This document shows positions 2,869 to 54,281 of a stretch of 64,000 nt of DNA, one piece after another. The stretch covers positions 50,871-114,870 of the forward strand of contig CAMYJO010000003.1 in assembly GCA_947258755.1 (NCBI GenBank), written 5' to 3'. The notes below the pieces were generated by a model. The model ran no database searches. It was not told the origin of the DNA and worked only from the letters and a program-made list of their open reading frames with translations. The stretch is from an uncultured Gammaproteobacteria bacterium (lineage in GTDB: Bacteria > Pseudomonadota > Gammaproteobacteria > JAADHQ01). Made by a program: the position numbers and the translations under genes. Numbering within the stretch: the first letter of the stretch is position 1; the number at the start of each line of letters is the position of its first letter.

Positions 2869-4290
2869 ATGAAAAATAAATTATTACTGGCACTTCTGGC
2901 TGTGCAGAGCTCACCTGCCCTGGCATTGAGCATTGACCTGTTTAAAGATGAACACGGTAAGCGAAACTGGCAACATCTGGCCAACTTCACCGGTTCTATA
3001 TTGCTGATTTTATTAACGATTGTGACCATTTACCTGTTTATTGCCCGACGCCGAGCCAATCGGGCAAACCGCGAGTTGACTACTATTCGTAATGAGCTGG
3101 AGATGCGCGTACAGGAGCGTACCGCCACCCTGGAGAACGAGGTCTCGCAGCATGTGATCACAGCTGAGCAGCTACGTTCCTCTGAATCCTATATCCAGGA
3201 CATACTAACATCCATGCCATTGATCCTGGTGGGCTTGGATAAAAGTGGCCGGGTCACCCAGTGGAACAAGCAGGCTGAAGAGGTGTCGGGCATATCATCT
3301 GAAAATGCCTTGGGTAAAACGCTGTGGGAGGCCTATCCACAGATGACAGTTCGCCCTGAGCATGTTCAGCAGTCCATCGAGCAGAACAAAACCATTCACC
3401 TCAAGCAGAGCATGCGCAGCCTCTATCACTTCGACATTACTATTTACCCATTACAGGAACAGGGAACCGGCGTTGTTATCCTGGTCGATGATGTCAGCAA
3501 AGAGGTTAGCGCGGAAAACATGCTGATACATAATGACAAGATGTCGTTTATGGGTGAGCTAGCCTCGACCATGGCGCATGACATTAACCTGCCACTGCAG
3601 GCATTGATGATGGACCTGAAACGCTTTCAGCATATTATCGGCATACCCGGTACCAGTGAGCCGAAGATTAGCTCGGATAGTACTCAGGGGCAGAAACTGA
3701 ATAGCATCATCAATGATATGTCCGACAAGACCGAGCAGGTATCGACCATTATCAGTAACCTGCAGGCCTTTGCCCGCAACCGTAAAGGCAAAAAGCAAAT
3801 GGCGAATATTGTCGACGTGATGGAAAACACTATCGGCCTTGCTAATGAAGTGGTCTCTGTCTCAGATGACCTACCCTTTAATACAATCAAGCTTGAGCGA
3901 GACTTCGAAAAGAACCTGCCCCTGGTACCCTGCTATATCACGGAACTGCAACAGGTATTCCTAAGCCTATTTCGTCATGCCTGTCTCGCACTGGAACTGA
4001 AAAAAGGGCTTGAAAATTTTGAGCCTGTCATCAACATCAAGTTGGCCGAAAATTATGACAACCTGTGGATTCAGGTGCATCACAATGGCACCGGGCTGAC
4101 CACTGAAGAACAAATGAATCTGTTTGAGCCCTTTTTCACAGACAAACCGGCAGCTGAGGATTTTGACGCCGGGCAGCGTCTGTCTTTCTCGTATTATATT
4201 GTCACCGAACAGCATCAGGGCAATATGACCGTGACATCCGATGTTGATCTGGGCTCTACCATCCATATCCAACTACCACTACGGCGTTGA
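2869..4290 (+). CDS. Membrane-anchored PAS sensor histidine kinase (orphan, no adjacent response regulator)
   Basis: The 473-aa ORF has a signal/TM segment (LLLALLAVQSS..ILLILLTIVTIYLF), a coiled-coil and a PAS-like region (LILVGLDKSGRVTQWNKQAEEVSG). It also has an H-box (ELASTMAHDINLPLQ) and a C-terminal HATPase (HHNGTGL...GLG-like). Confidence 0.75.
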   Translation: MKNKLLLALLAVQSSPALALSIDLFKDEHGKRNWQHLANFTGSILLILLTIVTIYLFIARRRANRANRELTTIRNELEMRVQERTATLENEVSQHVITAEQLRSSESYIQDILTSMPLILVGLDKSGRVTQWNKQAEEVSGISSENALGKTLWEAYPQMTVRPEHVQQSIEQNKTIHLKQSMRSLYHFDITIYPLQEQGTGVVILVDDVSKEVSAENMLIHNDKMSFMGELASTMAHDINLPLQALMMDLKRFQHIIGIPGTSEPKISSDSTQGQKLNSIINDMSDKTEQVSTIISNLQAFARNRKGKKQMANIVDVMENTIGLANEVVSVSDDLPFNTIKLERDFEKNLPLVPCYITELQQVFLSLFRHACLALELKKGLENFEPVINIKLAENYDNLWIQVHHNGTGLTTEEQMNLFEPFFTDKPAAEDFDAGQRLSFSYYIVTEQHQGNMTVTSDVDLGSTIHIQLPLRR

Positions 4291-4336
4291 TGGGTTAATT
4301 ATTTCGATGCAGAATAAGTCACTACGCAAATGACCT

Positions 4337-5155
4337 ATGCACAACAATAACGCATCAACATTACCGCAATTCAGTAATCCCCGACTTGTCTACGAACATC
4401 AGAATGACAGAGACACAATCACGGTGCTCGAAAACTATCGTTACCGCTGGATACAATCGAGCGATGGTAGTATTCAAAGTGCGATGAATCTGGCTGAGCC
4501 TTACGCCCCGGTACTACCCTATTTCCCGGTATTACTATCGGCACTGCTATTTACGCCGCCTCCGTCACGTACGCTGGTCATTGGCCTTGGTGGTGGCGAG
4601 CTGATTCGTTTCTTCAGTCATTACTTTCCACAAAGCCAATTGACCGCTGTCGAAAAAAGTACGCACATGAGTAATGTGTTCAGGGAATATTTCAGCCAGG
4701 AAACAAATGAACTTGAATTGATTAACGGCGATATATGTGAACAGTGTGTCAACGACACATCGGCCACATATAAATTGATTTTCCTGGATGTCTACGCCGA
4801 TAAGGCATTACCAGATTGTTTTAATAACAGCGCCTTTTTTGAGTATTTGGCTAGACTACTTGATAACGATGGTGTTATCGCCATCAATCTCGTCGTCAAC
4901 AGCGAAACTGAGGCCGTCCAAATATTGCAGCTGATCAGGCAGGCATTCGACAGAAAAACATTATGCCTGGCGGTCGGTTCGCACATGAATCTGGTCGTGT
5001 TGGCCTTTAAACAGACCCCGGCGACTTTTGCTGATGACGCCTTGCAGGAACTCGCTGCGGAACTGAGTCAGTCCCTGGAGATAGATTATCAGGCCTTAGT
5101 CACCAATATCCTTAGTAGTAATCCCAATGATGATGGTCGTTTGTCATTCTACTGA
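4337..5155 (+). CDS. Spermidine-synthase-fold (polyamine aminopropyltransferase-like) class I SAM-binding protein
   Basis: The 272-aa ORF has a VIGLGGGELIRFF glycine-rich loop and an FLDVYAD motif, reminiscent of the spermidine synthase/PABS family. The assignment is family-level only. Confidence 0.5.
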   Translation: MHNNNASTLPQFSNPRLVYEHQNDRDTITVLENYRYRWIQSSDGSIQSAMNLAEPYAPVLPYFPVLLSALLFTPPPSRTLVIGLGGGELIRFFSHYFPQSQLTAVEKSTHMSNVFREYFSQETNELELINGDICEQCVNDTSATYKLIFLDVYADKALPDCFNNSAFFEYLARLLDNDGVIAINLVVNSETEAVQILQLIRQAFDRKTLCLAVGSHMNLVVLAFKQTPATFADDALQELAAELSQSLEIDYQALVTNILSSNPNDDGRLSFY

Positions 5156-5229
5156 ACGAGGTATCGGATCGGGAGTAGCAAGCTATTGTACTAAGCCTGA
5201 CGCTGATGAGGCCGTTAACGTCTAAAGCA

Positions 5230-6138
5230 CTATTGTGTTACACAGCGACCGATGGAATCAGCCAGACAGATGTTACCATCGATCCAGATTGTTTTGTAAA
5301 GTACGGCACCCTCAAAAATCGCTCCCTCTATATCCGCATTTCTAAGGTCGGCATAGGAAAGATCACTCTGACTGAAGTCAGTGCCGCGCAAATCTGCATT
5401 GCGCAGGTTAGTTCCCTTTAGACTGGCTTTGGGCAAGCTTGCTCCTTTCAGCACCGCGAGTCCAAGGTTCGCATAGGCAAGATCGGCATTGCCTAACTGT
5501 GCCCTACTGAAGTTGGCTGCGGTCAGATTGGTATTGTTAAACAACGCAGCTTGCAGGTCATTATCTGCCAGCTGCACACCTTCCATCTGGCAGTGACTCC
5601 AGTTCACTCCCGGTCCGGGCAGGCTATTACAATCCGGTGCGTTGGGATTGAGTTTATTGGATTCAAGATAGACATAGGCCGCGAGTATCACCAGGCCGAC
5701 CAGGAATAATGAAGCCATCCTGACCGGCATGATATTTTTCCTGGTGCTGTCATAGTTGCCCTGTACTTTGGATTTCATCTCTCGGTGAGCACGTATATTC
5801 ATATCTTCGTGCTGCCGTCTGTCGACCTTACTGCGACGGCCCTGGAACTCATCCAGTTCGGAGCGGCGTCTGTCCTTCAGACGTTCATCTTCCCTGAGCC
5901 GTGCCTGTAACAGGCGCTGCTGATCCTCTTCATTATGATTATTGCGCATTTCTTCCGGTATCACCGCCGGGGTATTCTTCACGCGTGTCCAACTGGTCTT
6001 GTCATTGCTGACTTCGTCGTCCTGACGCAGGCGGCCAATCAGCACAAAGCGTTGCACCATGCCGACCGTAAAAGGCCCTTTTACCTCATTACCATTGCGG
6101 GTATACAAAAGATAGGTCGATTTTTCTTTTTTACGCAT
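5230..6138 (-). CDS. Membrane protein with N-terminal GYF/DUF4339-like domain, one TM helix and C-terminal pentapeptide repeats
   Basis: The 302-aa ORF starts with YLLYTRNGNEVKGPFTVGMVQRFVLIGRL (GYF-like) and has a TM helix MASLFLVGLVILAAYVYL. Its C-terminus is A(D/N)LxxA(N/D)L pentapeptide tandem repeats (ADLAYANLGLAVLKGASL...ADLRGTDFSQSDLSYADLRNADIEGA). Confidence 0.7.
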   Translation of the reverse strand: MRKKEKSTYLLYTRNGNEVKGPFTVGMVQRFVLIGRLRQDDEVSNDKTSWTRVKNTPAVIPEEMRNNHNEEDQQRLLQARLREDERLKDRRRSELDEFQGRRSKVDRRQHEDMNIRAHREMKSKVQGNYDSTRKNIMPVRMASLFLVGLVILAAYVYLESNKLNPNAPDCNSLPGPGVNWSHCQMEGVQLADNDLQAALFNNTNLTAANFSRAQLGNADLAYANLGLAVLKGASLPKASLKGTNLRNADLRGTDFSQSDLSYADLRNADIEGAIFEGAVLYKTIWIDGNICLADSIGRCVTQ

Positions 6139-6142
6139 AGAT

Positions 6143-6169
6143 TAAACAATGCAGATATTATGCCGATAA
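6143..6169 (+). promoter_or_regulatory. Sigma28 (FliA) promoter TAAACAAT-N11-GCCGATAA for the fliK-like/flhB-like operon
   Basis: There is a perfect -10 GCCGATAA at 6162-6169 and a -35 TAAACAAT (5/8 to TAAAGTTT) at 6143-6150 with 11-nt spacing. It sits 85 nt upstream of the ATG at 6254. Confidence 0.6.
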
Positions 6170-6253
6170 TTAACTATGGAATAAGACTATTCCTGCCCAA
6201 GTTGTATACTATGATAATGAAGCCCATATGCGCCAACAACGACCCATAAATCG

Positions 6254-8371
6254 ATGAAAATACCGCCATCGAACACACATTTTCAGTCCTTGAACGTTAC
6301 CAAGGCCTCTAGCGACGTACGTCACTGGCAACCAGGGCAGCAACTGAAGGCAACGGTGCTGTCGAATGCCACCAACGGACAGGTAAACCTGCGTATTGGC
6401 GCCACAATTCTGACAGCAGAAGTCGATGCGCGCGTCAAAATCGGCGAGAAATTGATGCTTGAGGTCATGTCCACTGGTGACAAACCGGTGCTACAGGGCG
6501 TCAGGAATGACAATATCCAACGCATACTGGAAGCGGCGCTACGCCAGACCCTGCCTCAACAACAGAGCCATGCGCAGCTAATCAGTGACATCAAGGCCTT
6601 ATTACAGCAAAGTCAGCTGCCGGCGCTACCGGCAAAAGTTCAACAGGCATTGAAACAACTCTATCAATCCTTCACCGATCGGGCAGCGCTGAGCACGGCC
6701 GACGGTATCAAGCAGGCACTGAAACAATCCGGCTTGTTTCTGGAAGCAAAATTGACTGGCAAAACGGCTGTCAGTAGCACCGCCCTGGAGCAAGATTTCA
6801 AGGCAGGACTGTTACGCCTGCAAAAGGCAATACAACAACAATTGAATCAGACAGGGGCTGTAGGTTCGACACGACCGTCCGAGGCTGCCGGTAAAAATTA
6901 TCCACCTGCGCCAGCAGCAGCGCCGAGCGTTGCCGCAAACCCTGCTGATGCTGCAACTGTCCGTGCCGCGCCTACGGAAGCCGGCGCTGGCAAACCACTG
7001 ACAACACCGGTACCGCACCTGACACCAGGCAAACCGGTGCCAGCTTCGATCAGTACTAGTAGCACCCCGGTGAGTAATAGTGCCGCTACAGCGAATACCC
7101 AGACCAGTACCCGTGCCCCGCAGTCCACAACGTCGGCTATCCCGGGCAGTATTATCAATAAGCCAGGCACGACAAACCCTGGTAATCCAAATGCTGCAAC
7201 GGCTCCCGGCAGCAGCGCAAATACTCAGGCGGTGACCACAGCAGCGACCAGCACAACAACAAACCCAGCCGTGACACCTGGCTCTGCCAACCCACCGAGT
7301 AATCCGACAAGCGTCAGCGCTCCCGGCAGCAGTGTGAACACTCAGGCCGCGGCCACAACAGCGGCCAGCACAACAACGAATCCGGCCGTGACACCGGGTC
7401 CCGCCAATCCGCCAAGTAACCCCACTGCCGCCAGCACCTCCGCTAGCACCGTTAATACTCAGGCGGCGACCACAGCACCGGCGGCTACAACGACAAGTCC
7501 CGCTAGCACGCTAAATCCAACTACCACTACAAACCCAGCCAATATGGCGCTTGGCAACAACATCAGAAGCGCCGATCGCGTTGCCGTAGACAGCAGTACG
7601 CCGAAACAGGCCATAGCGGCCGCACGGCCACCAACAGACAGTGCCTTAGCAACGCAAAAACCTGCACCGGCTGCGGCTGCACCAACAACGACCCCGGCAA
7701 ACACGACGACACCTGGCCCTGCTAATTTATCCGGTCTACTCCTGCATCAATTAGCGAGCCGCGAATTAGCAGCTCCCGGACAGATAAGCAGAACGAATGC
7801 GCCATTCATTTATAGTGGCAATATGCCGTTCAGAATCGGTCAGGACATCGACAACAGCCGGCCCTCTGCGCGCTTTTCCAAACTCGATAACCTGACCAAA
7901 ATCTTGACACTGTTTCTTAAGGATGCCGACTCCTCGCTGGCTCGCATCCAGCTAAATCAACTGTCACAGTCGCATGTTGAAGCGGAACAAAAACAGTCAT
8001 GGTTGTTTGAAATTCCGGTAAAGCATAAGGATGCAATAGACCTGTTCCAGTTCAAAATAGCAAAAGATCATAAGCATAATCAGGATGAGTCCAACGATGA
8101 ACAAACAGGCTGGACGGTAAACATTTCATTTAATGTCGAGCAATTAGGCCAGGTCCACAGCAAAGTCAACATTCATCAAAAACAGGTATCAATCATTTTC
8201 TGGACAGAACAACAGGAAACTACCTCCACCTTCCAACAGCATTTGCAGACCCTACAGCACGACCTGGAAGATGCAGGCTTGATGGTGACCCATTTGAATT
8301 GCATACAAGGCAAGCCACCAGAGACTACCGATACGCCGATTAATAAAGGCGTTGTGGATGAGCAGGCATGA
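6254..8371 (+). CDS. FliK-like protein (second hook-length-control/ruler paralog) with long Thr/Pro/Ala-rich repeat region and C-terminal Flg_hook domain
   Basis: The 705-aa ORF has a low-complexity centre (TTNPAVTPGSANPPSNPT...). Its C-terminus (WLFEIPVKHKDAIDLFQFKIAKD...WTVNISFNVEQLGQVHSKVNIHQKQVSIIFWTEQ) matches the FliK C-terminal secretion-switch fold. Confidence 0.7.
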   Translation: MKIPPSNTHFQSLNVTKASSDVRHWQPGQQLKATVLSNATNGQVNLRIGATILTAEVDARVKIGEKLMLEVMSTGDKPVLQGVRNDNIQRILEAALRQTLPQQQSHAQLISDIKALLQQSQLPALPAKVQQALKQLYQSFTDRAALSTADGIKQALKQSGLFLEAKLTGKTAVSSTALEQDFKAGLLRLQKAIQQQLNQTGAVGSTRPSEAAGKNYPPAPAAAPSVAANPADAATVRAAPTEAGAGKPLTTPVPHLTPGKPVPASISTSSTPVSNSAATANTQTSTRAPQSTTSAIPGSIINKPGTTNPGNPNAATAPGSSANTQAVTTAATSTTTNPAVTPGSANPPSNPTSVSAPGSSVNTQAAATTAASTTTNPAVTPGPANPPSNPTAASTSASTVNTQAATTAPAATTTSPASTLNPTTTTNPANMALGNNIRSADRVAVDSSTPKQAIAAARPPTDSALATQKPAPAAAAPTTTPANTTTPGPANLSGLLLHQLASRELAAPGQISRTNAPFIYSGNMPFRIGQDIDNSRPSARFSKLDNLTKILTLFLKDADSSLARIQLNQLSQSHVEAEQKQSWLFEIPVKHKDAIDLFQFKIAKDHKHNQDESNDEQTGWTVNISFNVEQLGQVHSKVNIHQKQVSIIFWTEQQETTSTFQQHLQTLQHDLEDAGLMVTHLNCIQGKPPETTDTPINKGVVDEQA
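7202..7510. repeat. About 2.6 tandem copies of a 117-bp (39-aa) repeat inside the fliK-like gene
   Basis: Units begin with gctcccggcagcag at 7202 and 7319. A third, partial unit starts at about 7436. Each encodes APGSS(A/V)NTQA..TTTNPAVTPG(S/P)ANPPSNPT. Confidence 0.8.
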
Positions 8372-8724
8372 GTACCAATAAAAACATGGCCGATATTGCG
8401 GTCACACTTCAGTATGACGGTAAAAATGCGCCCAAGGTCACCGCCAAGGGTGAGGATGAGATTGCCAGACAAATTCGGGAAATCGCCAAAGAACATGATA
8501 TCCCTATGTATGAAGACCAGATCCTGGCCCAGGTACTTTCGCAAATAGACCTTGGTGAAGAAATACCGCGCAGCCTGTATGTCACGGTCGCGCAGGTCAT
8601 CGCATTTTCATATCTGATGGCCGATCGTATTTGCATGTTGCCGCCTGAACGGCCAACCGCAAACGCGACAGCGACAACTGCGTTACTTACCCATGAAAAA
8701 AAGAAGGGGCCAAACGGCCCCTGA
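8368..8724 (+). CDS. FlhB C-terminal-domain-like protein (EscU/YscU/HrcU/FlhB family, stand-alone)
   Basis: The 118-aa ORF contains AVTLQYDGKNAPKVTAKGEDEIARQIREIAKEHDIPMYEDQILAQVL, which resembles the FlhB cytoplasmic-domain region containing the autocleavage site and flanking conserved residues. Its ATGA start overlaps the fliK-like stop. Confidence 0.75.
   Translation: MSTNKNMADIAVTLQYDGKNAPKVTAKGEDEIARQIREIAKEHDIPMYEDQILAQVLSQIDLGEEIPRSLYVTVAQVIAFSYLMADRICMLPPERPTANATATTALLTHEKKKGPNGP
8690..8722 (-). terminator. Rho-independent terminator (hairpin aGGGGCC-aaac-GGCCCCt) shared by convergent operons
   Basis: A 7-bp G+C-rich stem at 8705-8722 is followed on the minus strand by a T-run (plus strand gaaaaaaagaa, 8694-8704). 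It lies between the DUF2802 gene stop and the 3' end of the flhB-like ORF. Confidence 0.65.
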
Positions 8725-17659: not shown

Positions 17660-18403
17660 TTAATCTTTGGATTTAGGGAAAAACTCAGACATCCGTGCCC
17701 GTAGCCTGATTAATGCCTGGCCATGGATCTGACAGACCCTTGACTCACTGACTCCCAAAACCTCTCCAATCTCTCTTAAATTCAATTCTTCATCATAATA
17801 AAGTGACATCACCAGGCGCTCTCTTTCCGGCAGACCAGAGATAGAATCCGATAAGCCCTGCTGGAAGTCCTCGTTCTGCAATGACTCCATAGGTCCCTGC
17901 TGTTTAGTTTCGACAACAGAATCACAACCACCGTCTTCACCGAAAAAGCCTGGATCCTCAAAGCTGAATACCCGACAGCCAGCCGCATCCTGCAGGATCT
18001 GATGATATTCTTCGATATCCATTTCCAGTTTCTCTGCCACTTCGTGATCACGTGCATCACGTCCCATTTCGTTTTCAATCTGTCTTACAGCTTCAGACAC
18101 CATTCTGACCTTGCGATGCACCGATCTTGGCGTCCAGTCCGAGCGCCTGATCTCGTCCAGCATTGAACCGCGAATACGTATACCGGCATAGGTCTCGAAG
18201 CTGGCACCCTGCTGCGGATTATAGTTTTTCGAAGCCTCCAACAGTCCAATCATACCGGCCTGGATCAGGTCTTCGACCTGCACACTGGAGGGCAAACGAC
18301 TGACCAGATGGTAGGCAATACGCTTTACCAGCCCGACGTGTTTCTCGACCAAATTGTGTTGTTCAGTTGGGTCCTTAGTCACAAACATAGCGTATCCGTT
18401 CAT
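17660..18403 (-). CDS. fliA: Flagellar sigma factor FliA (sigma28)
   Basis: The 247-aa ORF has sigma70 regions 2/3/4 (LVKRIAYHL, EDLIQAGMIGLLEA, LREIGEVLGVSESRVCQIHGQAL). Its ATGA start overlaps the fleN stop. Confidence 0.9.
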   Translation of the reverse strand: MNGYAMFVTKDPTEQHNLVEKHVGLVKRIAYHLVSRLPSSVQVEDLIQAGMIGLLEASKNYNPQQGASFETYAGIRIRGSMLDEIRRSDWTPRSVHRKVRMVSEAVRQIENEMGRDARDHEVAEKLEMDIEEYHQILQDAAGCRVFSFEDPGFFGEDGGCDSVVETKQQGPMESLQNEDFQQGLSDSISGLPERERLVMSLYYDEELNLREIGEVLGVSESRVCQIHGQALIRLRARMSEFFPKSKD

Positions 18404-23117: not shown

Positions 23118-23152
23118 TAGCCACTCGCCACTCGCCACTCGCCACTCGCCAC
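23118..23152. repeat. 5 tandem heptamers TAGCCAC/TCGCCAC (inverse orientation of the GTGGCTA array), abutting the flhB stop codon
   Basis: tagccac tcgccac x4 lies at 23118-23152 and is the reverse complement of GTGGCTA/GTGGCGA. Confidence 0.9.
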
Positions 23153-24294
23153 TATTTTTTACCTTTCCACATGTCATCGGGTACATCCAGATCGGTTGGC
23201 AGATCAGGCGTTTGCATGCCTGCGGAGGTCGCCTGCTTGAGTTGGTAGATATAGGCCAGGATTTGCGCCACGGCCAGATACAGGCGTGACGGTATTTCCT
23301 GCTCCAACTCAGTTGAGAAGTAAATGGCCCTGGCCAGCGGAGGTGCTGAGACGATAGGCACTTCATTTTCTGCGGCGATTTCCCTGATGCGTGCCGCCAC
23401 CAGTTCCGTTCCTTTGGCCACCAGTTTCGGTGCGCCCATCTTGCCGTCTTCATACTTCAATGCAATTGCGTAATGCGTCGGGTTGGTAATGACCACATCG
23501 GCCTTCGGCACCTCTTCCATCATGCGGCGCATAGCAGCCTCCATTTGCAGACCGCGTATTTTACTCTTGACCTCAGGACTACCTTCCGTACTCTTACGCT
23601 CTTCCTTTACTTCCTTCTTGGTCATGCGTTGCTGCTTTTTATGCTGCCAAATCTGGAAGGGAATATCGATGGCCGAAATAATAATGATCGTCGAACAGAC
23701 CGCAAGAAAATACCAGGCGGTCATCTCTGTTGTCTTCGAATATGCAGTAGCAAATTCGTAATGACCGATACGCAGGATATCATCAAACAATTTAATGATA
23801 AGCAGCGCACCCAAGCCCCCTACCAATCCCACTTTTAGCAGCGATTTGGCCAACTCCATCAAGCCCTGGGTGCCAAAAAGTTTTTTAGCTCCCTTAAGCG
23901 GGCTCATATTCGACAACTTGGGTTTGATCTTTTTAGCGGAAAAAGTAAAACCGCCAATCATCATGGGGCTAAGAAATACAGAGATGACCATCAAGCTAAT
24001 CAAGGGTGAAATCAGAATAAAGGCATCCAGTAATGTACTAAACAGGTTCTTAATTGCCATCATCGGCTCGTAGATCATACGCCGATCAATACTCAAGGAC
24101 GAGCGCACTATTTCCGCCAGGCCATCACCGATGCCACGCCCCATGGTCAACAAGCCGATTGCCGATGCCATCAGGATCAAAGTCGTGTTTAATTCACGTG
24201 ACCGCGGAACCTCCCCCTTTTGTTTCGATTCCTGCAGCCGTTTTGCGGTGGGTTCCTCACTTTTTTCTTGACCGTCTTGGTTTTCTGCAGCCAT
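23152..24294 (-). CDS. flhB: Flagellar export switch protein FlhB
   Basis: The 380-aa ORF has an N-terminus EKSEEPTAKRLQESKQKGEVPRSRE. It also has the NPTH autocleavage motif (VVITNPTHYAIAL). Confidence 0.95.
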   Translation of the reverse strand: MAAENQDGQEKSEEPTAKRLQESKQKGEVPRSRELNTTLILMASAIGLLTMGRGIGDGLAEIVRSSLSIDRRMIYEPMMAIKNLFSTLLDAFILISPLISLMVISVFLSPMMIGGFTFSAKKIKPKLSNMSPLKGAKKLFGTQGLMELAKSLLKVGLVGGLGALLIIKLFDDILRIGHYEFATAYSKTTEMTAWYFLAVCSTIIIISAIDIPFQIWQHKKQQRMTKKEVKEERKSTEGSPEVKSKIRGLQMEAAMRRMMEEVPKADVVITNPTHYAIALKYEDGKMGAPKLVAKGTELVAARIREIAAENEVPIVSAPPLARAIYFSTELEQEIPSRLYLAVAQILAYIYQLKQATSAGMQTPDLPTDLDVPDDMWKGKK

Positions 24295-29085: not shown

Positions 29086-30765
29086 TCAGGCATAATAATC
29101 GATAGCTGATAGTACGCCGTCATGCTCCATGTCGGTCATGTTATTGGCAAGGCTTTCTGGTTCTTCAGACATTGAATCAGACTGGTTTTGCGCAAAATGA
29201 CCCGGCGCCCTTTTATCATCCTGACGTTGTTGCGTTTCAGTTTCTCGTTCACCACTGGAAACATTGGCCTGCTCCATTTTCACCCCAGCCTCCTGCATCA
29301 TTTCACGTAGCCTTGGCAAGGTGGCCTCAATCGCATCGCGCACGGCACCATGTTGCGATACGAAGCTGATATTGGCCTGCTCATTCTGTATCGTTATCTT
29401 TACGTCTATCGTACCGAGATTTCCCGGCGTCAGACGTAATTGCGCATTCTGTATACCTTCCTTACTCATCCATACCATACGGCTACCAAATTCATCTCCC
29501 CATTTTGGCTTATCGATGGGCTGCTGTAGCAACAGATTGGTGTTTGTTAATTTCATCCCATCCAGGCTTGCCCTGGCCGCCGGTTCTGTCAGTGCCGCTG
29601 CAGCTGCTGTCGGCATTTCTTTTCCTAGTTGGGCCAGTCCTTTTTCTACCATGCGACTGAAATCGGAAGCAGACTCCGTTGCTGTCATCCTGGCTTCCGT
29701 TAATAACGGCTGCGAACCCTGTTCGGCCTGACTGTTCATAAAGTGTTCGCTGCCTGCTGATTGCTGCGCTAGCGGATTCTGAGCAAGCTGGTTTGAGACT
29801 GCTGGGTTAGGCGCTGACAATGGTCCACGCTGAGTTTGCATAGGTTCGACTAATTGCGCTGCTACCTGCATATCCGCAGCTGGAATTTGCGTCGAAAAAG
29901 TATAAGCTGCATGTGGGACTGCAGGTCTTAATATTGGCGAGCTTGGGTGCTCACTGTTTATTATCGCCGCCTCTTTCGCTAACTGCTGAGCTTCCGTTTT
30001 TACTTGTATGTCCCTGGCGGCATCAGTATTGCTGACTGCCACTGCAGCTCCGGGCTTGGTGCTTATATTGGCTGTCGCTGATAGATCCTCGGTTTGGGTG
30101 ACTGGCGATGTTGTCACGGCACCGTTATTAATGATGGCAGTTACAGGCGCGATAGCAGCATTGCTTTGATTCTCAGGTCGATTAGTAGCAATGCCGGTAG
30201 ACGTAATGTCTGCGCTGACAGTCGCAGTTGGCCCTTTCGCGGCTATCTGTGCGGCCTGGCTTTCATCAGCGCTTAATGCAACGGTTGACGTCAGCGGGCT
30301 TGTGTCAGCGATGAGCTTGTCTGCAGTATCTATGTGATGAGTGCCAGCCACTACTGACGTTGAAACCTGGGTGTTGATGTGCACGGATACCGCTTCTTGT
30401 ACCTCAATACTGGCTATCAGGGATTCGGCCGTACTCATCAACGCCTGTTGTGGCTCGACTTGAACGCTTAACGCTGGCATTGATTCGCTATCGGCATCTG
30501 TGGCGGCTATAGGCGGCAGACTTTTCCCCGTCAGCGGCAGTTCTTGCCTCAATTCTGGCAATGCAATCTGCAATAGTTGCTGAGCGCCTTGCTCCGCGAG
30601 ACCTGGCGGACGACTGCCCAGGTGGCCATGCTGCGCTAGGGAAGTTTCCAAATGATCATTAAATTCAGATAGTTGCGACCCAATTATAGGGGCAGACAGG
30701 CCTTTGTCTTGGCCTGAATCGGCAGTCGCTGCGGTATTAGCTACCGTGATCGGTAATAAATTCAT
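29086..30765 (-). CDS. fliK: Flagellar hook-length control protein FliK
   Basis: The C-terminal Flg_hook domain is LRLTPGNLGTIDVKITIQNEQANISFVSQHGAVRDAIE. The start was chosen at MNLLPITV. Confidence 0.85.
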   Translation of the reverse strand: MNLLPITVANTAATADSGQDKGLSAPIIGSQLSEFNDHLETSLAQHGHLGSRPPGLAEQGAQQLLQIALPELRQELPLTGKSLPPIAATDADSESMPALSVQVEPQQALMSTAESLIASIEVQEAVSVHINTQVSTSVVAGTHHIDTADKLIADTSPLTSTVALSADESQAAQIAAKGPTATVSADITSTGIATNRPENQSNAAIAPVTAIINNGAVTTSPVTQTEDLSATANISTKPGAAVAVSNTDAARDIQVKTEAQQLAKEAAIINSEHPSSPILRPAVPHAAYTFSTQIPAADMQVAAQLVEPMQTQRGPLSAPNPAVSNQLAQNPLAQQSAGSEHFMNSQAEQGSQPLLTEARMTATESASDFSRMVEKGLAQLGKEMPTAAAAALTEPAARASLDGMKLTNTNLLLQQPIDKPKWGDEFGSRMVWMSKEGIQNAQLRLTPGNLGTIDVKITIQNEQANISFVSQHGAVRDAIEATLPRLREMMQEAGVKMEQANVSSGERETETQQRQDDKRAPGHFAQNQSDSMSEEPESLANNMTDMEHDGVLSAIDYYA

Positions 30766-30836
30766 ATCGGGCTCACTCGTCTGAAAGTCTCTTGTCAGTA
30801 TCAGGAGCAAGTACTATGCCAATTGTGCCCTATCCC

Positions 30837-39182: not shown

Positions 39183-40607
39183 TTACGACGCTTCAACGTT
39201 GCGATTGAGACCGTATTTACGTAGTTTTTCCACCAGCGTGGTCCTACGCATGTTCAATAATTTGGCGGCATGGGCAACCACACCATCGGCCTCACTGAGG
39301 GCCTGGCGGATTAAGCTGATTTCCATGTTGTTCAGGTGTTCTTTCAGATCGATGCCATCGCGGGGAAGACGCGCATCACTGGAAAGGCCCTCAGGTACGG
39401 CGGCCACCGCCGCGACTGTATCGGCATACACCGGAGCTGTGGCCACACCGTTCTCGGGACGGAATTTTTCCGGCAAATCCTGCACATCGACAAGTCCAAA
39501 AGGAAACAGAATAGCCAGTCGCTCAATCAAATTGGCCAACTCACGCACATTACCCGCCCACTTAAATTGACACAATGCCATGACGGAGGCCGGTGTTAGT
39601 CGAACCGAGCCGCGTTTTTCATGCTCGATCCTGGAAATCAACTCATTGATCAACAGCGGTATATCTTCGATACGTTCACGCAGCGGCGGCATTTCTATCG
39701 GAAATACATTCAGGCGGTAATACAGGTCTTCACGAAACTTGTTAGCCGCAATCTGTTCCTCGAGATTACGGTGTGTGGCAGCGACCACCCTGACGTCTAT
39801 TTTAATACTCTTGGTGCTACCAACCCTTTCAATTACACGTTCCTGCAGTACGCGTAATAATTTCACCTGCATGGTCAGGGGCATATCACCAATTTCATCG
39901 AGAAAAAGTGTGCCGCCTTCTGCCATCTCAAAACGGCCCTGCCTGGCACTGATGGCACCGGTAAAGGCGCCCTTCTCATGGCCGAACAACTCACTTTCCA
40001 GCAGCTCGGCCGGGATAGCGCCACAGTTAATCGGCACAAAAGGCTTATTGCGTCGATTAGAATAATAATGAATGTTTCTGGCCACGACCTCCTTGCCGGT
40101 GCCGGATTCACCCAGAATCAGTACCGTTGCATCGCTTTCCGCCACCTGCTCAACCAGGCGTCTGATTTCCTGGACCTTGCGGCTACTACCGACCAGACTG
40201 CGGAACAACTCCACCGGCCGCTGCGACGCAGATTGTTCCTTGCTTTCCCGGTAAACCTGGGCATTATGCAGGGCACTATTGATATTAGAATGCTTAAACG
40301 GGTATTGAATGATGCCGATAATGCCTGGCTCGTCGCTTTGCGTTTCATCCGATTTGGCCGATATCGTAAATTTGGGCAAGTTACTATCAGCATTGCTAAT
40401 TTGTTCGAGTAGTTCAGTACGCCGTTGTTCTGTTGGCTGTTCACCGAGAATCAAGGCATGAAAGGGACCGGACTGGCTCAACATTTCAGTGGAAAATTCA
40501 TCGGCATTGGTGAGCGTAACGTCGTATTCAATAAAGGTGAGGATTTCCTGTAATTGCTCTCCCCTGGCGGAATCGGCATCGATGATCAGGATTTTATTGT
40601 TCTGCAT
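39183..40607 (-). CDS. fleQ: Flagellar master regulator FleQ/FlrA (sigma54 enhancer-binding protein)
   Basis: It has an FleQ-type N-domain lacking the phospho-Asp pocket. It has an AAA+ domain (GESGTGKE; GAFTGA; R-finger) and an HTH. Confidence 0.9.
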
Positions 40608-44234: not shown

Positions 44235-45074
44235 TTACTGTAGCAGTGACAATGCAGCCTGTGGCAAGGTATTAGCCTGAGCCAGGATAGAGATACCAGC
44301 TTGTTGCAATATCTGCGAACGAGTCAGGTTAGCTGTCTCTGCAGCAAAGTCTGCGTCCTGAATACGGCTACGTGCAGCTGTCAGTGATTCATTGAAAGAT
44401 TCAAGGTTAGATATAACTGCCTCGAACCTGTTCTGTACCGCACCAAATGTAGCACGTTGGTTAGTGATTTCCGTGATAGCAGTATCAACACTGGCAATAG
44501 CGGCAGAAGCAGTAGCTGATGTAGTTACATCTACTGTACCTGTTGCAGCCAGATCTCCACTATAACCTGCGATACCTGTAACCGTAGTGGTATTAACAGA
44601 TACACGGTTGGTGTCTGTACCTTCGTAACCGACCTGGAAGGTCAATGTGCTAGTCGCACTCAACAGGGCCTGTCCATTGAACTCGGAAGTCTGGATATTA
44701 CGTGACAATTCCTGTGTCAGCTGATCAACCTCTTTCTGAACCTGTGCACGCTCTGTATCACCGATCGCACCATTCGCTGCCTGTACCGCCAGCTCACGAA
44801 TACGCTGCAGGTTATCAGCAATCTGACCGAGTGATGTTTCAGCAGTCTGACCCAGGGAAATACCATCACCGGCATTTCGGATCGCAACCGCGTTACCACG
44901 GATCTGCTTGGTAAAGCCTTCAGCAATGGCCAGACCGGATGCATCGTCCTTAGCGCTGTTGATACGCAGACCAGATGAAAGACGTTGTAATGAAGTTTGT
45001 AATGAAGACTGGGTCTTGTTCAGGTTCCTGATGGAATTGATTGACGCCAGGTTACTATTGACTACTAATGGCAT
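44235..45074 (-). CDS. fliC: Flagellin FliC (short, about 279 aa; Ser/Thr-rich central segment)
   Basis: The start was chosen at MPLVVNSNLASIN, with a GGAGG RBS. D0/D1 are conserved at the N- and C-termini (LSLLQ end). Confidence 0.9.
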   Translation of the reverse strand: MPLVVNSNLASINSIRNLNKTQSSLQTSLQRLSSGLRINSAKDDASGLAIAEGFTKQIRGNAVAIRNAGDGISLGQTAETSLGQIADNLQRIRELAVQAANGAIGDTERAQVQKEVDQLTQELSRNIQTSEFNGQALLSATSTLTFQVGYEGTDTNRVSVNTTTVTGIAGYSGDLAATGTVDVTTSATASAAIASVDTAITEITNQRATFGAVQNRFEAVISNLESFNESLTAARSRIQDADFAAETANLTRSQILQQAGISILAQANTLPQAALSLLQ

Positions 45075-45192
45075 GATAAGCCTCCAAACTCTCAAGAACC
45101 GACAAACTTAGTTATATATATAGATTGTCAGTCCTGTTTTTCTTAGCGGATATAGTAATCACATTCGTTACTATTCACCGCTCCCACACAGT

Positions 45193-45219
45193 TTAACGGC
45201 CAGGTGGCAATGATCTTTA
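45193..45219 (-). promoter_or_regulatory. Sigma28 promoter for fliC (TAAAGATC-N11-GCCGTTAA)
   Basis: On the minus strand, taaagatcattgccacctggccgttaa matches the sigma28 consensus at 6/8 and 7/8. The resulting leader is about 110 nt. Confidence 0.65.
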
Positions 45220-45419: not shown

Positions 45420-48400
45420 TTACTTCACAGCAGAACGTGCGTGCGTATGCTGAGAATCCATACCTTTTATATTGAGCGCCCGTGCCCAGGCATCGATGTT
45501 ACTACTGAGCATAAAGTTGTCCCGCACCCATTTTTGTAAAACATCACCCTCTTGATAAGCGGCATCGAGATCATAAATGCGCTCACGAATGGCTTCAATC
45601 CAGGCCTCTTTTTTGTTCTGCACATGTTTGACCGGGGCATTCTGGTAGGGATAGATATCCGTGCATATAACAGGCCAACCAAGTATTCCGTACTCTAACA
45701 GCCTTAAATTACTTTTTGCCTCATTAAAGGGATGTTGTGCCAATGGCGCAATGGCGACATCCAGATCAAGGCTGGCCAGTTTTTCAGCATAACCGGTAAA
45801 CGACAGCACAAACTCATGTTCTTCGGCAATGTCATCCTTTATTTCCTCAGGACACATGCCAAAGAATACCCAATCCACCTCATGTGCCGTTTCCTTGACA
45901 ACATCGATGATAAAGGCAAGGTCATCTGCATGTTGTTGCGCACCCGCCCAGCCAACTCGTGGCTTGTTACTTCTACCTCGTTTCGAAGTCAGTTCCGCCC
46001 AAACATCGTCCTCCAGACAGTTAGGAAGTACCTGGATATCATTGATCATGTTATGGCACAGGTCAGCTAATGGCTCAGTCGATACAATCAGACGATCACA
46101 AAAGCCCAGTGCATTGCGTAAGCGCTTTCTTGGTTCTGATGGAATCGCTTTTCTGAAATTGTTCCCCTCTGGCACGTTGGTGATCAGATCATCCAGGGTA
46201 AACACCTTGAATACATCGAGGTATTTTTTGTATTCTTCCAGAGTTACAAGTGAGTTCTTGGCAATACCTGCATGCGAAATAACGGTATCTGCTCCTGAGC
46301 GGGCCAGCTCCGTTAGTCTTAGTATACGTTGCTCATTAAATCGGTACGCATGTGTGCATTCGGTTTGCGCCAGCCCCGCCTTGGCTATTTGCCTTAGCGG
46401 TCCACGGATTCGATATTCGCCACTACCACCAAACAACGGCATGCCAATAATTTTCTCCCTGTCTTGAAAAACCGGATCCCAATTGATAATTACACCGGTT
46501 TCGACCTGGTAACTATTATTGATTAAACTGAGATGACGATTATAGGCTGGATCATTGGCAATTTCAGACATCCAGGTAGACATCATATACTGACATTCAG
46601 CCCTGAAACCGTCTTCGTGCTGCTTACGTTGCTCATGGGCACGATCTATTTGCGATGCATTTCCATAATGCAATAATGTTGCAAATGGCGTCCACACGAT
46701 ACGATGACCTGTTTCTCTGATTTTAAGACACAGGTCCACATCATTATAGGAAACCTTGAGATTCTCGGCATCCATACCATCAACTGCATCGTAGACCGAT
46801 TTTTTAACCAGCATACATGCGCCAGTGACCGCGGAATAATTCTGATCAACCTGCAGGCGACCCATATAACCGCCTTGCTTAATATCTGCATTACCAAGAT
46901 AGGGATGACCGGCAACGCCGTCCATACCCAAGACGACACCGGCATGCTGAATGTCAGATGTTTCAGGATAGGCCAGGCGCGCGCCGACAACACCTACGTC
47001 TTCACGCATTGCATATGACATCATCCTGTCCAACCAATTATCCTGAATGATTTTGGTATCATTATTCAGGAATAACAGATAATCGCCATTGGCTTCTGCA
47101 GCTGCCATATTGGATATGGCCGCATAATTAAACGCCTCGGGATATTTCAACACGCGTACGTGGTTATCAGGAATATTATGCATATCCTCAAGGTATGCCA
47201 GGCTGTCCACATCTGTTGTCTGATTATCGATAACAAGCACTTCATAATTTTGATATTGCGTGCGCTCCAATAAGGAGTTCAGACAACCGGTGATACAGTC
47301 GAATTTATCTTTAGTTGGTATAATGATGCTGACCAAGGGGCTATGATCATACAGATACTCTACTCTGATAGTATCCTGTAGGTAGCCATCATGAATGTTG
47401 GCCTTGATCTTTTTGGTTTGCAAGAAATCGCTGACCAGTTCTTTCCTGTAATGATGCGTATCCAGTCTGCTCAGCTGTGTCGGTACGTGATACAGGATGT
47501 TATCAATATGCAATATGCTCTTCTCATCATGATGAGCAAGTACTTTCAGGAGCATGTCGTAATGCTCAAGACCAAAACAACGACTGAGCCCGCCAATTTC
47601 CGTCAAAACAGCATTTTTGATCATACAAACCGGACCGATATAATCACTTGACAGCAAATAATCATAATTAAAATCCGGCTTCAACTGAGGGCTCTGATAT
47701 GAGCCATCGGCTTCGATAAGATCGTGATCAAAATAAACAAAGCCGATATTATTGTTAAGATTAATATGATCAACAAATGTATTCAGAAAATGCGCTTCAA
47801 ATTCCATTCCAGGAAGAATGACCGATAGCCAATCGTTATCAGCCATAGCAGTCATCGATGTAAGACTTGCATCCAGATCCTGGTCATTGACGACCTGACA
47901 CCACTCAATACTACCTTTGGAGGTATTCAGCATGCCTGGCCGAGGCAATTCACTGATCACCTTAAGCGTCCAGCCTGTGTAGAATGATAACTCAAGGCTT
48001 GCCATGGTCGCACGCAGCATGTCTTCCTGCCCTGTACTCAGATACATGACAAACGTGACTGCCGGCCTGCTACTCCATGTATACTGCATCCTTTCTGCCA
48101 TTAATTGTGCGTCAATCTCTTCGATCGAATGCCCTTTTTGCCACTGCCTATACTGCTCACGCCGCGAATACAATTCATGAACGCGCTGCAACTCCGATAT
48201 AGATACTGTTTTGTCGCCGGACAGAGAATCGTCCGTGATCCAGTGCAGTGTTGTAAATTTTGTTATACGTTTAAGCTTATATTTCTCACCCACACGTAAC
48301 CAGAATTCCTGATCACCTATGGCCTTGTATGATTCATCGAAATACCCCAACTCGGCATGTAGTGACTTTCTCCACATCGGGTGTGGACCAACCATCGGCC

Positions 48401-51400
48401 TGGACAATAATTCATTGAATTCATACTTGGGCCAAACATAGGTACCGCTGACAGAATTTTCCTCAAAAGTTTCATGCGGAACTGGTGTCAGAAAAGCATT
48501 ACCATAAGCAATAGCAACTTCGAGATCGTCATCCAGTGCACGCATAAGCTGTTCACATGCCTCGCGATGCAGGCGGTCATTGGTACTACAGGATATAATA
48601 TATTTACCAGATGCATTCCTGACAGCGATATTCCAAGCCTCATAGATGCCAATACGTTCAGGTGTACGTATATATTTTATATTGGAATATTGTTTCTGGT
48701 ATTCCTCGACAATTGATTTTTCATTCTCGGGAGAGTTTGCATCGACAATAACAATTTCAATATTGTCCGCAATCGTTTGCGACAACAAGTCATCAAGGCA
48801 TTCACGCATAAATGACTCTGATGCGTAGGTTGATACGATAGCACTAACGACAGTGCCTGAAAGTCTTGTGGCACTACTGCTGCGATCCTGCTGAGCATTA
48901 ATCTTTGCTTCGGTCGCAGACAGCCGACTTGCCTCTTCATGCTGACCACTCTGCTTAAGAATTTCTGCCAGGTTCTTTAAAATGACATCATCATTTGGAT
49001 TGATTCCGTAGCCCATTCTGAGATATTTCACGGCCGTCAACAGATCCTGACACTGCCAAGCTAAGATACCGAGATTATTATAAAATTCACTGTTATAGGG
49101 CCAAGACTCTATCGCCGCTATAAAACATTGATGCGCCTGATCAACTTCACTCGAATAGAAGGCCTGCTCACCCTGCTCATTTAGTTTAGCCGCCTCATTG
49201 TAACTGGCTTCAAACTCATCTATAAAGGCCCTATTGACAAATAGTGCGTCACCATGGACCCCGGTATTCATCATGTCTTCAAAACCAATAAACACAAAGT
49301 CTTCATGCAGGTATTCAACTACATCATCCAGTAAACGTGCACCTTCATACATTTCCACGGTACTGGCTTCAGTATAAATCACCTTGACGTTTGCCAGCAG
49401 TTTCCTGTCAATGCCTGTGAGCACCATATATTCCGCGCCCTGAACATCAATGTATAACATGTCTGGCACTTCAAGATCTGAATGCTCAATGATGTGCTGT
49501 AACGAAACCTGATCGACTTCAATTTCCCCACGCATATCTACGTCAGGAAATATATTCTTATGCTCTTTCATTGGTAACAGAGAACTGGAATATAAATTAT
49601 TACTGATATTAAAAGTCACCTTGCCAACGCGATCGGATACGGCATAAGGAAGCACCTTAACCCTTGAATCATATTGGAAAGCCTGATTCAATTGTTTGTA
49701 CACGTCCGGAATCGGTTCGAATAACGCAATACTTTCCATGTTCTTATACAATGAGAAGAACCATTCACGCTCCTCAAACAGGTGCACGCCGACAAAGAAA
49801 ATATTTTTGATGTTGTCCGCAATATATGCCCTTTCCATATAGGCTTTAAGTGTTTCATTAGCCGCCAGGCTGCGTAAGTTCAGGCCTTCATTACTCTCTT
49901 CCTCCCTATCCTCGACCTTGTCATCTATTTTCTCTATTTGAACAGGCTCATTTGTATCTGCACTTGACGAGGTTATTTCTTTAAACGCATTAGCCACATG
50001 CTCATCATCTGGTTTTGCATCCAGATAAACCTGGCAAATGTTAATGGCATCGGCATGCTCACCCATAGCCATCAGCAGGTTAGTTAAATTAAGCACGGTA
50101 TACTTGTTATATTGATCAAGCGCATAGGCCTTACCGAGATACGCCAATGCCGTACTGGCATCGTCTCCTTCCCAGTAGTAAACAGCGAGGTTATTCAAGG
50201 TGTCGACATTATGTTCAGATATGCTCAGGGCTTCATTCAGCTTTTCCAGCGCGCCCTGCCTGTTTCCGGACTGGTACAGCTCCTCAGCAAACTTATTCAG
50301 TTCTGCCAGCTTGGCTTCGTCACCCGGAAGCGAATGCTTCGACGTTGCTTCGATACTATCATTTGTATCAGCAATAAGCGCCTGATTGTGAAGGCGTGTC
50401 TGACCTTTAATATTTTGCAAGGCCATTTCCATCAACAGACCAGATGCTATTTTCGCCATATTATCCCAGGAAAAATGTGCGGCTCTGCGTAGTCCGGCTA
50501 TCGCCAACTGCTTTCTGTATTCCGGCTTCTGTATGTCCTGTAACGCTGACAGCATCGCTGTGACATCATTGGCTGCTACATAATAGGCCGCATCTCCAGC
50601 CACTTCCGGTATAGAACCAGCCTGACAGGTGATTATAGGACATTCGCAAGACATAGCCTCAAGCAAAGGCATGCCAAATCCTTCATACAAGGACGGATAA
50701 ACCAGGGCCAGAGCCGCGCTATAACAGGCAACCAGATCATTTTCGGGCAATGACAGCACATGAACTCTACTGCCATGCTGACATTCCTTTAATTCTGTCT
50801 CAAGCTCAGAATCCCCGCCAACACAGACAATCTCGAAATCTTCGCTATTTTCGAGTAATTCCATGGCCTTGAAAAATTGTACTGCATTCTTGTAATTTTC
50901 ACGCCTGCCAACCAACATGAAAAATGGCTTTGTTATGCCGTATTTTTGTCGAAAGGCATTACAACGTTCTTCTCCGGAATTTCTAAAATGTTCGCCGACG
51001 CCATTATAAGTAATATATAAAGGCTTATTGTTGACATGTGGAAAATATTTGTACAAATCATCTGCAGTATTATTTGAAACTGACATATATGCAGAGGCAT
51101 ACTCTATGGCTTGATGCTTTTCTTTCCATACGGGAGACGACATATCCCAACCGAAGATTTCTGGTATCATGTCGTGCACCAGCAAGACCGACGGCGTACT
51201 GACTGGGTGAGAATAATAAGTGGAAACGAACACATCGGCTTCCAGCTCATCGCAGATATCCTGCAATAATCGCCTGTCATGTTCACCGCAGCCTGTATAG
51301 GCCGGCGCATCAATATAATTGATCCCACGTATTCTGTCTGCGGTGAATCCACGGTCTATGACGTGTACATATCTTGAAAAGCCACTCTGCAACCAGCTTT

Positions 51401-53126: not shown

Positions 53127-53182
53127 CTGGCCCTCTCTTTGATAGCCTGTTATTTGTCTCATTTTTTCGTGTTTTGATACGA

Positions 53183-53198
53183 TGCAAGAATTGATCCA
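53183..53198 (-). promoter_or_regulatory. Sigma54-like promoter for the giant GT/MT gene (TGGATC-N5-TTGCA)
   Basis: The reverse complement of tgcaagaattgatcca is TGGATCAATTCTTGCA. The -12 element is perfect and the -24 element has two mismatches. It lies about 55 nt upstream of the chosen ATG. Confidence 0.45.
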
Positions 53199-53387
53199 CA
53201 ATATAAATAATCTATAATTACAATTACTTATAATTTTTAAGATCGTGTGACTATCAATGACGCCGGTTTTTTGTCACCGCAAAACCAACACGTTAAACAA
53301 TCGATGGATGAACTTTTTGAGTATCGCAAGAAATCACTTATACGTGCTGATTGTGCCCAGCAGGGGCATAAAGCCGTCTATACAGTC

Positions 53388-54281
53388 TTAGAGGAAGTTA
53401 AATAGAGAGAGGCCTTGTACACGCACATAGGACTGCTGTGCCGCTTCAAGACCTGCACGTCTCAAATTGAGTTCAGTAATGGCCTCTGCCAGGTCCAGAT
53501 CTTCCAGATCAGATAATAACTCCTTACTCTGAACGACAACGCCTTCATTGACATTATTTTGCACATCCACTGATTTCAGACGTGCGCCTGTCCTTGACCT
53601 GAAGTTCGATAAATTCTCCATCACTGCATCAATCTGCTCAAGATCAGTCCCTGATTGCGTATCAGACTCAAGATTAACGGCGAGGTTATAAATGGCACTG
53701 AAGGCATTTTCTGACGTATTTTCGACATTAAAGAACAGGTCAAAGCCATTATCACTGTCTTCTATATTCCGGCTTGGTCCAATTGCAACCCGCCTTTGTC
53801 CCTGATCACCGGCATAACTGTAGCTACCACTACCATTGTCACTAACCGGCGCAACTTCGCCATTAAAGCCGGAAAACAGGTATTCACCACTAACATCCTT
53901 GCGTCCGGACAGACTGATGATTTCATCCAGATGCTGACGTATCTCTGCCGCAATTGCATCGCGATTCTCCTGTCCCTGGGTATCATTCAGTCCCTGCACC
54001 GCGAGTTCCCTGATGCGCTGATAGACATCAACCATACTGGTCAATGTAATATCCTGGGACTCCAGGCGTGCCTGGACCATATCGGCGTTGCGCTGATACT
54101 GTTCGTTAATCTCCACGACCTGGCGTAAATCGAGAATCCGTGCCGATCCGGCTGGATCTTCTGAAGGTGTTAATATCCGTCGGCCTGTTGAAACCCTTTG
54201 CTGAATATCACTAAGGCGTTCCTGCTGTTGTAACATCCTGCTGACGCTTTCCATCTGGAATTGTGCTGTTGAGACTCTCAT
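53388..54281 (-). CDS. flgL: Hook-filament junction protein FlgL
   Basis: The 297-aa ORF has flagellin-like N- and C-terminal helices. Confidence 0.9.
   Translation of the reverse strand: MRVSTAQFQMESVSRMLQQQERLSDIQQRVSTGRRILTPSEDPAGSARILDLRQVVEINEQYQRNADMVQARLESQDITLTSMVDVYQRIRELAVQGLNDTQGQENRDAIAAEIRQHLDEIISLSGRKDVSGEYLFSGFNGEVAPVSDNGSGSYSYAGDQGQRRVAIGPSRNIEDSDNGFDLFFNVENTSENAFSAIYNLAVNLESDTQSGTDLEQIDAVMENLSNFRSRTGARLKSVDVQNNVNEGVVVQSKELLSDLEDLDLAEAITELNLRRAGLEAAQQSYVRVQGLSLFNFL

Follow-up and report, generated by a model that had tools for sequence, protein, structure and literature searches.

A fliK2-flhX operon at the edge of a polar flagellar cluster in an uncultured gammaproteobacterium, and its possible place after the flagellar export switch

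In Pseudomonas putida KT2440, PP_4328 was named fliK2 because of the FliK C-terminal domain in its product, and PP_4329 was named flhX after the paralogue of FlhB-CC, the post-cleavage C-terminal fragment of the flagellar export protein FlhB (bioRxiv 10.1101/2021.08.29.457346, Leal-Morales et al.). RNA sequencing in that study found the two genes to be co-transcribed, and their promoter, PfliK2, which has a FliA (sigma-28) consensus, responds to ectopic FliA with a 4- to 33-fold stimulation and counts among those listed as needing FliA (class IV); the operon adjoins flrD, cheW, parP and parC. The FlhX family itself, as that preprint relays it, was defined by Pallen et al. 2005 and has HP1575 as its Helicobacter pylori copy. 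Wand 2006, as the same preprint summarizes it, reports that this H. pylori FlhX is able to take the place of an FlhB-CC that has been deleted. Here, we analyze a gene pair in a 64,000-nucleotide stretch of DNA (hereafter, the window) from an uncultured Gammaproteobacteria bacterium (GenBank assembly GCA_947258755.1, contig CAMYJO010000003.1, positions 50,871 to 114,870), which we identify with high confidence as the fliK2-flhX operon described in P. putida. An earlier reading of the window, made from its sequence alone (the sequence-only reading), had implied that the pair was new; it already has a name, and the present locus is a further copy of it, ordinary as a genome feature.

The interest of the pair lies in the open puzzle of why many flagellated bacteria make a soluble copy of FlhB-CC and a second protein with a T3S4 domain, the switch domain of FliK, after the export switch. 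FliK-C is known to contact FlhB-C directly (PMC10965912). In a 2026 Salmonella study, FlhB-CC is reported to hold the export gate in its early mode and to be needed for early export, and FliK to eject it at hook completion, coincident with sigma-28 activation; an AlphaFold3 model from the same study places the FliK tail on FlhB-CCD (PMC13344023). With the ejection of FlhB-CC, there is an obvious position for the FliK2-FlhX pair in the switch mechanism, and one that can be tested. The features of the window on which the comparison turns are as follows.

6143..6169, plus strand: promoter of the sigma-28 (FliA) type, TAAA-N15-GCCGATAA, lying 85 bp upstream of the start of fliK2
6254..8371, plus strand: fliK2, encoding a 705-aa FliK-like protein (Pfam Flg_hook, E=5e-14; homologues all with PF02120)
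8368..8371, plus strand: ATGA stop/start overlap of fliK2 and flhX, read from the sequence
8368..8724, plus strand: flhX, encoding a 118-aa stand-alone FlhB-CC paralogue (Bac_export_2, E=3e-22)
17660-18403: fliA, within the window
23152..24294: canonical flhB, with full-length Bac_export_2 and NPTH, a gene separate from flhX
29086..30810: canonical fliK (Flg_hook, E=5e-24), a gene separate from fliK2

As in P. putida, a gene for a FliK-C-domain protein is followed by flhX at the end of the cluster, behind a FliA-type promoter and convergent with the parC-parP-cheW-flrD genes: flhX faces a DUF2802 (flrD-type) gene, beyond which lie cheW, a CheW-like parP and a ParA-like parC. Because the window also encodes FlhA, FlhF, a MinD-like FlhG, FliA, sigma-54 activators and che genes, the surrounding cluster is of the polar type, and the fliK2-flhX pair sits at the edge of its flagellar and chemotaxis genes. 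Again as in P. putida, the cluster has its canonical fliK and flhB at other places, and the sequence-only reading was right to keep them apart from the pair. The canonical FlhB has both the NPTH autocleavage motif and the N-terminal membrane domain, and the canonical fliK occupies the usual fliK-to-flhB block, which rules out the 705-aa gene as the real hook ruler gene. Two differences from P. putida stand out: the upstream neighbor is a pentapeptide-repeat gene here and ccmA there, and the FliK2 protein is much longer here because its linker is repeat-expanded. Two apparent leads in the literature proved to be different things. The string "fliK2" in Vibrio papers is either a reference-numbered "FliK^26^" or the fliK of the lateral system, and "PA1466", a guessed locus tag, matches only PA14_66xxx tags in an unrelated twitching-motility paper.

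The sequence-only reading had described the small protein as homologous to the cytoplasmic region of FlhB/YscU, and this holds: FlhX matches Pfam Bac_export_2 (PF01312) over profile positions 259-334 of 335. It had also placed the autocleavage site within the protein, which is not the case. FlhX is 41% identical to aa 276-367 of the window FlhB, and since this alignment begins just past NPTH, the autocleavage site is absent and the protein resembles an FlhB-CC that has already been cleaved. At the cleavage site FlhB reads TNPTHYAIALKY and FlhX reads KNMADIAVTLQY, so that NMAD replaces NPTH (the same reading had itself seen no clean NPTH there), and across 22 homologues the FlhX positions before A11 are unconserved. 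The protein lacks a transmembrane domain, as it does the FlhB-CN linker and beta-1 strand; with NPTH and the membrane domain both absent, an autocleaving switch protein of the FlhB/SctU kind is ruled out. Its closest PDB entry by sequence is 3b0z chain B, the Salmonella FlhB post-cleavage fragment, aligned from chain residue 5. Structure gives the same picture: for the AlphaFold2 (AF2) model of FlhX, with a predicted local distance difference test (pLDDT) score of 72.6, the top 34 Foldseek matches are all C-terminal domains of FlhB, EscU, YscU, PscU, Spa40, SpaS or CT091, and the best of them are the post-cleavage ("B") chains of FlhB, EscU, YscU, PscU and Spa40, and FlhX is therefore a ready-made FlhB-CC.

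The likeness to Salmonella FlhB-CC extends from the fold to the conserved surface. In the alignment with 3B0Z chain B, residues A21/P22/A75/I78 of FlhX correspond to Salmonella FlhB A286/P287/A341/L344, the residues of a hydrophobic pocket to which rod and hook subunits dock (PMC9307174), and they are invariant or nearly so across the FlhX family. On this alignment, FlhX retains the early-substrate docking surface of FlhB-CC, a point added by the present analysis. Unlike the Salmonella fragment, FlhX is a product in its own right, at no time attached to a membrane-bound FlhB or cut from one, and, judging from its late promoter, would be expressed after the switch rather than before it. With H. 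pylori FlhX (HP1575), the FlhX family and TIGR00789 it shares the form of a small soluble protein consisting of FlhB-CC only, with no NPTH and no membrane segments; it differs from the H. pylori protein in its translational coupling to a T3S4 protein, in its sigma-28 promoter and in scoring below the TIGR00789 cutoff.

The 3' end of flhX carries a further feature.

8705..8722, minus strand: terminator-like GC-rich hairpin with a T-run, inside the last flhX codons (consensus scan and sequence)

This hairpin may terminate transcription of the convergent cheW-flrD operon. It and the T-run coincide with the final codons of flhX (KKKGPNGP, window 8695-8724), and the KKKGP tail is retained in the closest FlhX relatives, possibly on account of the terminator and not of the protein.

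FliK2 is built of a folded head, a long linker and a terminal switch domain.

6254..6853, plus strand: N-terminal domain specific to FliK2 (aa 1-200), with helices after a small beta domain at aa 13-83
6854..7861, plus strand: disordered linker, Pro/Thr/Ala-rich (aa 201-536), with pLDDT<50 and no secondary structure
7205..7482, plus strand: 117-nt (39-aa) tandem repeat in 2.4 copies within the linker (Tandem Repeats Finder, 76% matches, score 311)
8081..8320, plus strand: T3S4, the switch domain at the C-terminal end of FliK (aa 610-689; PF02120 positions 3-82 of 85)
8348..8368, plus strand: conserved extreme C-terminal tail GVVDEQA (alignments and tail counts)

The C-terminal domain seen by the sequence-only reading is a genuine Flg_hook domain (PF02120; 52.3 bits against a cutoff of 29.8), so that the search of profile hidden Markov models (HMMs) recovers both the FliK_C and the FlhB families from the pair, and the ATGA coupling of the two reading frames is likewise as that reading gave it. 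In the AF2 model this region forms an alpha/beta domain at aa 582-685, with pLDDT ~85 over aa 621-690. The highest-ranking Foldseek hit for it is 5cuk, the switch domain of PscP, an injectisome ruler (E=0.015, probability 1.0), and FliK-C itself (2rrl) is matched weakly (E=0.23, probability 0.54, root-mean-square deviation 25 A). The protein shares with canonical FliK (PF02120; 2RRL) this C-terminal T3S4 domain, a disordered middle and an end of the form hydrophobic-D-x-x-A. The 74 sampled members of the FliK2 family end in [LI]-[LVI]-D-x-x-[AV]-COOH, and the canonical FliK of the window ends in AIDYYA. In Salmonella FliK, which ends at A405, the last five residues are required for switching (PMC10965912; PMC13344023). 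The tail of FliK2 is conserved and FliK-like.

The N-terminal 200 residues are a different matter. They make up a conserved domain of their own, in which no likeness to FliK-N is detectable: an HMM of the domain gave no match to the canonical FliK of the window, and BLAST between the two proteins returned low-complexity matches only. The AF2 model is of moderate-to-low confidence here, with pLDDT ~70-74 over aa 21-80 and lower values at the edges of the beta domain. A search with full-length FliK2 was swamped by the low-complexity linker (8000 candidates, 18 hits), and an exhaustive search with the N-terminal domain was used instead; it matched 1073 clusters (50% identity) at E<=1e-3, and all 74 of the proteins sampled from among the bearers of this domain also have Flg_hook. 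Both the N-terminal domain particular to FliK2 and the conserved LLD-x-x-A tail are, like the FlhX pocket, added by the present analysis, and these three elements (N-terminal domain, C-terminal tail and docking pocket) offer targets for mutagenesis at the level of the family. At 705 aa, the FliK2 of the window is the second longest of 145 family representatives, of which the median is 433 aa. The sequence-only reading had proposed a late pair of ruler and switch mimic, which is a reasonable interpretation; lateness is supported by the sigma-28 consensus and by the FliA dependence in P. putida, and the mimicry of post-cleavage FlhB-CC by the structure of FlhX, but nothing supports the ruler part: the N-terminal domain is unrelated to that of FliK, and FliK2 is at most a putative ruler.

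Two sets of FliK2-like genes depart from the common layout. In a close-relative metagenome-assembled genome (MAG; locus L002 in our numbering, 4198-6004), the N- and C-terminal domains lie in two overlapping open reading frames (ORFs) in different frames, reflecting either an assembly frameshift or a pseudogene. In L082 (137-1771) and L083 (4001-5767), the N-terminal beta segment of the FliK2-like proteins is duplicated (P0094-P0096); the next gene is for outer-membrane efflux (OEP) and not flhX, and in L083 an HDOD gene precedes.

The ruler-like build of FliK2, in which a ~335-aa disordered linker joins the folded head to the T3S4 domain, might instead indicate that the protein is a late exported substrate, either a true second ruler or a secreted regulator, with FlhX acting as a cytoplasmic chaperone or mask that keeps the T3S4 domain off nascent gates. 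This comes nearest to the idea of the sequence-only reading, and the translational coupling could be likened to that of substrate/chaperone pairs. However, family alignments reveal no conserved F-x-x-x-hydrophobic docking motif at the FliK2 N-terminus, and the length of the linker varies ~two-fold within the family with no structure of matching length known, which together make this explanation quite improbable.

Rates of substitution bear on whether the pair is functional at all. Measured against the closest relative (L001), the only comparison in which synonymous rates (dS) are usable and not saturated, flhX has a ratio of nonsynonymous to synonymous rates (dN/dS) of 0.04, and the FliK2 N-terminal domain one of 0.12; dN is highest in the linker, at 0.56, as compared with 0.22 in the N-terminal domain and 0.14 in the C-terminal domain. 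Both fliK2 and flhX are under purifying selection, and the ratio for flhX together with its conserved pocket marks it as a conserved protein, not a decaying fragment. That the pair no longer has a function, being either a duplicate in decay or what is left of another flagellar system or of an injectisome, could find some support in matches of two of the 74 FliK2 relatives to HpaP, an injectisome family. It is nevertheless extremely improbable: apart from the selection on both genes, both families are large and conserved (FlhX homologues alone fall into at least 3630 clusters at 90% identity), and the pair lies within a flagellar cluster behind a sigma-28 promoter. An injectisome remnant in particular is disfavored by the scores of FlhX, which is nearer to FlhB than to SctU (72.7 vs 49.8 bits; PDB E=4e-12 vs 2e-4).

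The promoter ahead of the pair had been given in the sequence-only reading as TAAACAAT-N11-GCCGATAA, which is the same as TAAA-N15-GCCGATAA and agrees at every position with the sigma-28 consensus of enterobacteria. The window has two such perfect matches, against 0.00 expected from 100 shuffles. The fliK2 promoter recurs at the same position with one or two mismatches in the closest relatives L001, L002 and L004, and two-mismatch matches lie upstream of fliK2 in L066 and L086/L087. By analogy with the P. putida PfliK2 experiments, it would be expected to be active, to depend on FliA and to be late in the order of expression, whereas the promoter of canonical fliK is early.

The other perfect match (40295-40321, plus strand) lies antisense within a gene for a FleQ/FleR-like sigma-54-dependent activator (39183-40607, minus strand) and could be a FliA-driven antisense promoter or a product of chance. 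A one-mismatch sigma-28-like site, TAAA-N15-GCCGTTAA (45193-45219, minus strand), stands ~100 bp upstream of the flagellin gene at 44235-45095, as expected for a class IV gene. On its other side, the fliK2 promoter abuts the divergent pentapeptide-repeat gene, of which the start codon is 5 bp from the -35 element.

Beyond the window, a genome scan with the FlhX alignment yielded 80 loci and further look-ups nine more; of the 84 with enough upstream DNA, 22 have a T3S4 gene directly upstream according to profile HMMs built here. The pair thus recurs in other Gammaproteobacteria, many of them polar flagellates, so that the co-occurrence check proposed in the sequence-only reading for polar-flagellate members of the class has a mixed outcome: FlhX also occurs alone. 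The 4-bp overlap of the two genes is found again in L001, L002, L003, L004, L011, L032 and L072, as well as in the distant loci L081 and L084. Convergence on flrD-cheW-parP-parC is seen in L085-L089 and L001-L006, and the Pseudomonadales-type loci L086-L088 read ccmABCDE / fliK2 flhX / DUF2802 cheW parP parC motDC. The left flank of the window is matched by one Thiogranum-like locus (Memo-AMMECR1-pentapeptide). Farther afield, two very distant FliK2 relatives (22-24% identity) stand beside an ATP12 gene outside any flagellar cluster; in L081 and L084, the gene that comes after the distant FliK2 relative encodes an FlhB-CC of 87-88 aa. The distant paired loci are probably alphaproteobacterial, and a survey of Campylobacterota mentions an flhX-fliK pair.

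Taking these observations together, the explanation that we favor by a modest degree is that of the known operon encoding a cytoplasmic complex of a T3S4 protein with an FlhB-CC domain, which acts after the switch. Given a sigma-28 promoter, the pair would be made only once the hook-basal body is complete and FlgM, the anti-sigma factor, exported, and translational coupling would ensure that the two products are made together. The T3S4 domain of FliK2 and FlhX would then form a complex in the cytoplasm that mirrors the contact of FliK-C with FlhB-CC at the export gate. That such a complex forms is reasonably likely: FliK-C contacts FlhB-C directly, the tail that the AlphaFold3 model places on FlhB-CCD has a counterpart in FliK2, and the ATGA coupling is kept even in L081 and L084, outside flagellar clusters. 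As with FlhB-CC and FliK in Salmonella, the partner of FlhX has a T3S4 domain and a conserved terminal tail. A specific role for it after the switch is more doubtful. The complex may act on the gate once the primary switch has taken place, holding or buffering free domains of the FlhB-CC type and so keeping gates that have switched in their filament mode, or it might instead supply a replacement CC domain.

The retained pocket also lends itself to an account in which FlhX is a spare part, docking on the FlhB-CN stub of gates that have no CC of their own and restoring the docking of early substrates, with FliK2 as its dedicated remover, so that the switch could be repaired or reset. Such a role would agree with the H. 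pylori result already cited, in which FlhX makes export possible despite deletion of FlhB-CC, and with the Salmonella study, in which FlhB-CCD is required for early export and lost at the switch (PMC13344023). Yet sigma-28 timing would have FlhX present when early export should be off, the Salmonella model has the switch irreversible (PMC13344023), and the H. pylori activity is known for HP1575 alone. We consider this account unlikely. A bolder variant, to which we give somewhat less credence still, is that FliK2-FlhX is a second, sigma-28-timed, cytoplasmic copy of the ejector and the ejected: FlhX would dock again on gates that have switched or been damaged, putting them back into early mode, or else shield new gates from premature loss of CC, under the control of FliK2. 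If true, the "irreversible" export switch would be adjustable in polar flagellates.

Conservation of the pocket residues and late expression could be read in the opposite direction as well, with soluble FlhX as a decoy whose pocket captures FliK and any rod and hook subunits left over, so that early export ends more sharply, and FliK2 as a mere partner or stabilizer. By our own reasoning, polar flagellates build a new flagellum in each generation while sigma-28 is probably active, and a decoy would hinder the new basal body; the conserved T3S4 partner and its tail are also left unexplained. The chances of a decoy accordingly appear slim.

Several points weigh against the favored explanation, that of a post-switch FliK2-FlhX complex encoded by the known operon. 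The authors of the P. putida study call fliK2-flhX uncharacterised (bioRxiv 10.1101/2021.08.29.457346), and neither a phenotype, nor an interaction of FliK2 with FlhX, nor secretion of FliK2 has been experimentally shown in any organism; the same is true of the "second export switch" of the sequence-only reading. The likeness to PP_4328/PP_4329 is one of domain architecture and synteny. The best NCBIfam family for FlhX is TIGR00789 (flhB_rel) at 75.6 bits, under its cutoff of 117.35. A sigma-28 consensus of the enterobacterial type is clear only in the closest relatives and a few other lineages; as a simple scan for it returned nothing upstream of fliK2 in most distant lineages, promoter conservation is shown for close relatives only. 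Finally, the two genes do not always travel together. Some FliK2-like genes have no adjacent flhX, and in 62 of the 84 loci (Methylococcales and unclassified MAGs) FlhX stands without an adjacent FliK2. Of these 62, two were inspected, from Methylomonas and Methylobacter, both Methylococcales: in L016 (5977-6261) and L076 (5953-6285), a solitary flhX lies between queF and psd, the gene for phosphatidylserine decarboxylase, with no adjacent T3S4 gene.

Of the remaining genes in the window, the divergent neighbor of fliK2 is the nearest.

5230-6138, minus strand: pentapeptide-repeat gene, 302 aa

By eye, its product also shows many charged residues in one long run, as well as a hydrophobic segment that may span the membrane. 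This neighbor is retained in L001-L006, L011, L031, L032, L066, L085 and L089, with ccmA in its place in the Pseudomonadales-type loci. Farther along, an ORF of 2593 aa (45420-53201, minus strand) encodes tetratricopeptide (TPR) repeats together with more than one glycosyltransferase domain (GT1, GT2) and a methyltransferase domain of the FkbM type. It is flanked by the flagellin gene mentioned above and by a gene with a flagellin N-terminal domain at 53388-54281, and its product is probably a flagellin glycosylation enzyme.

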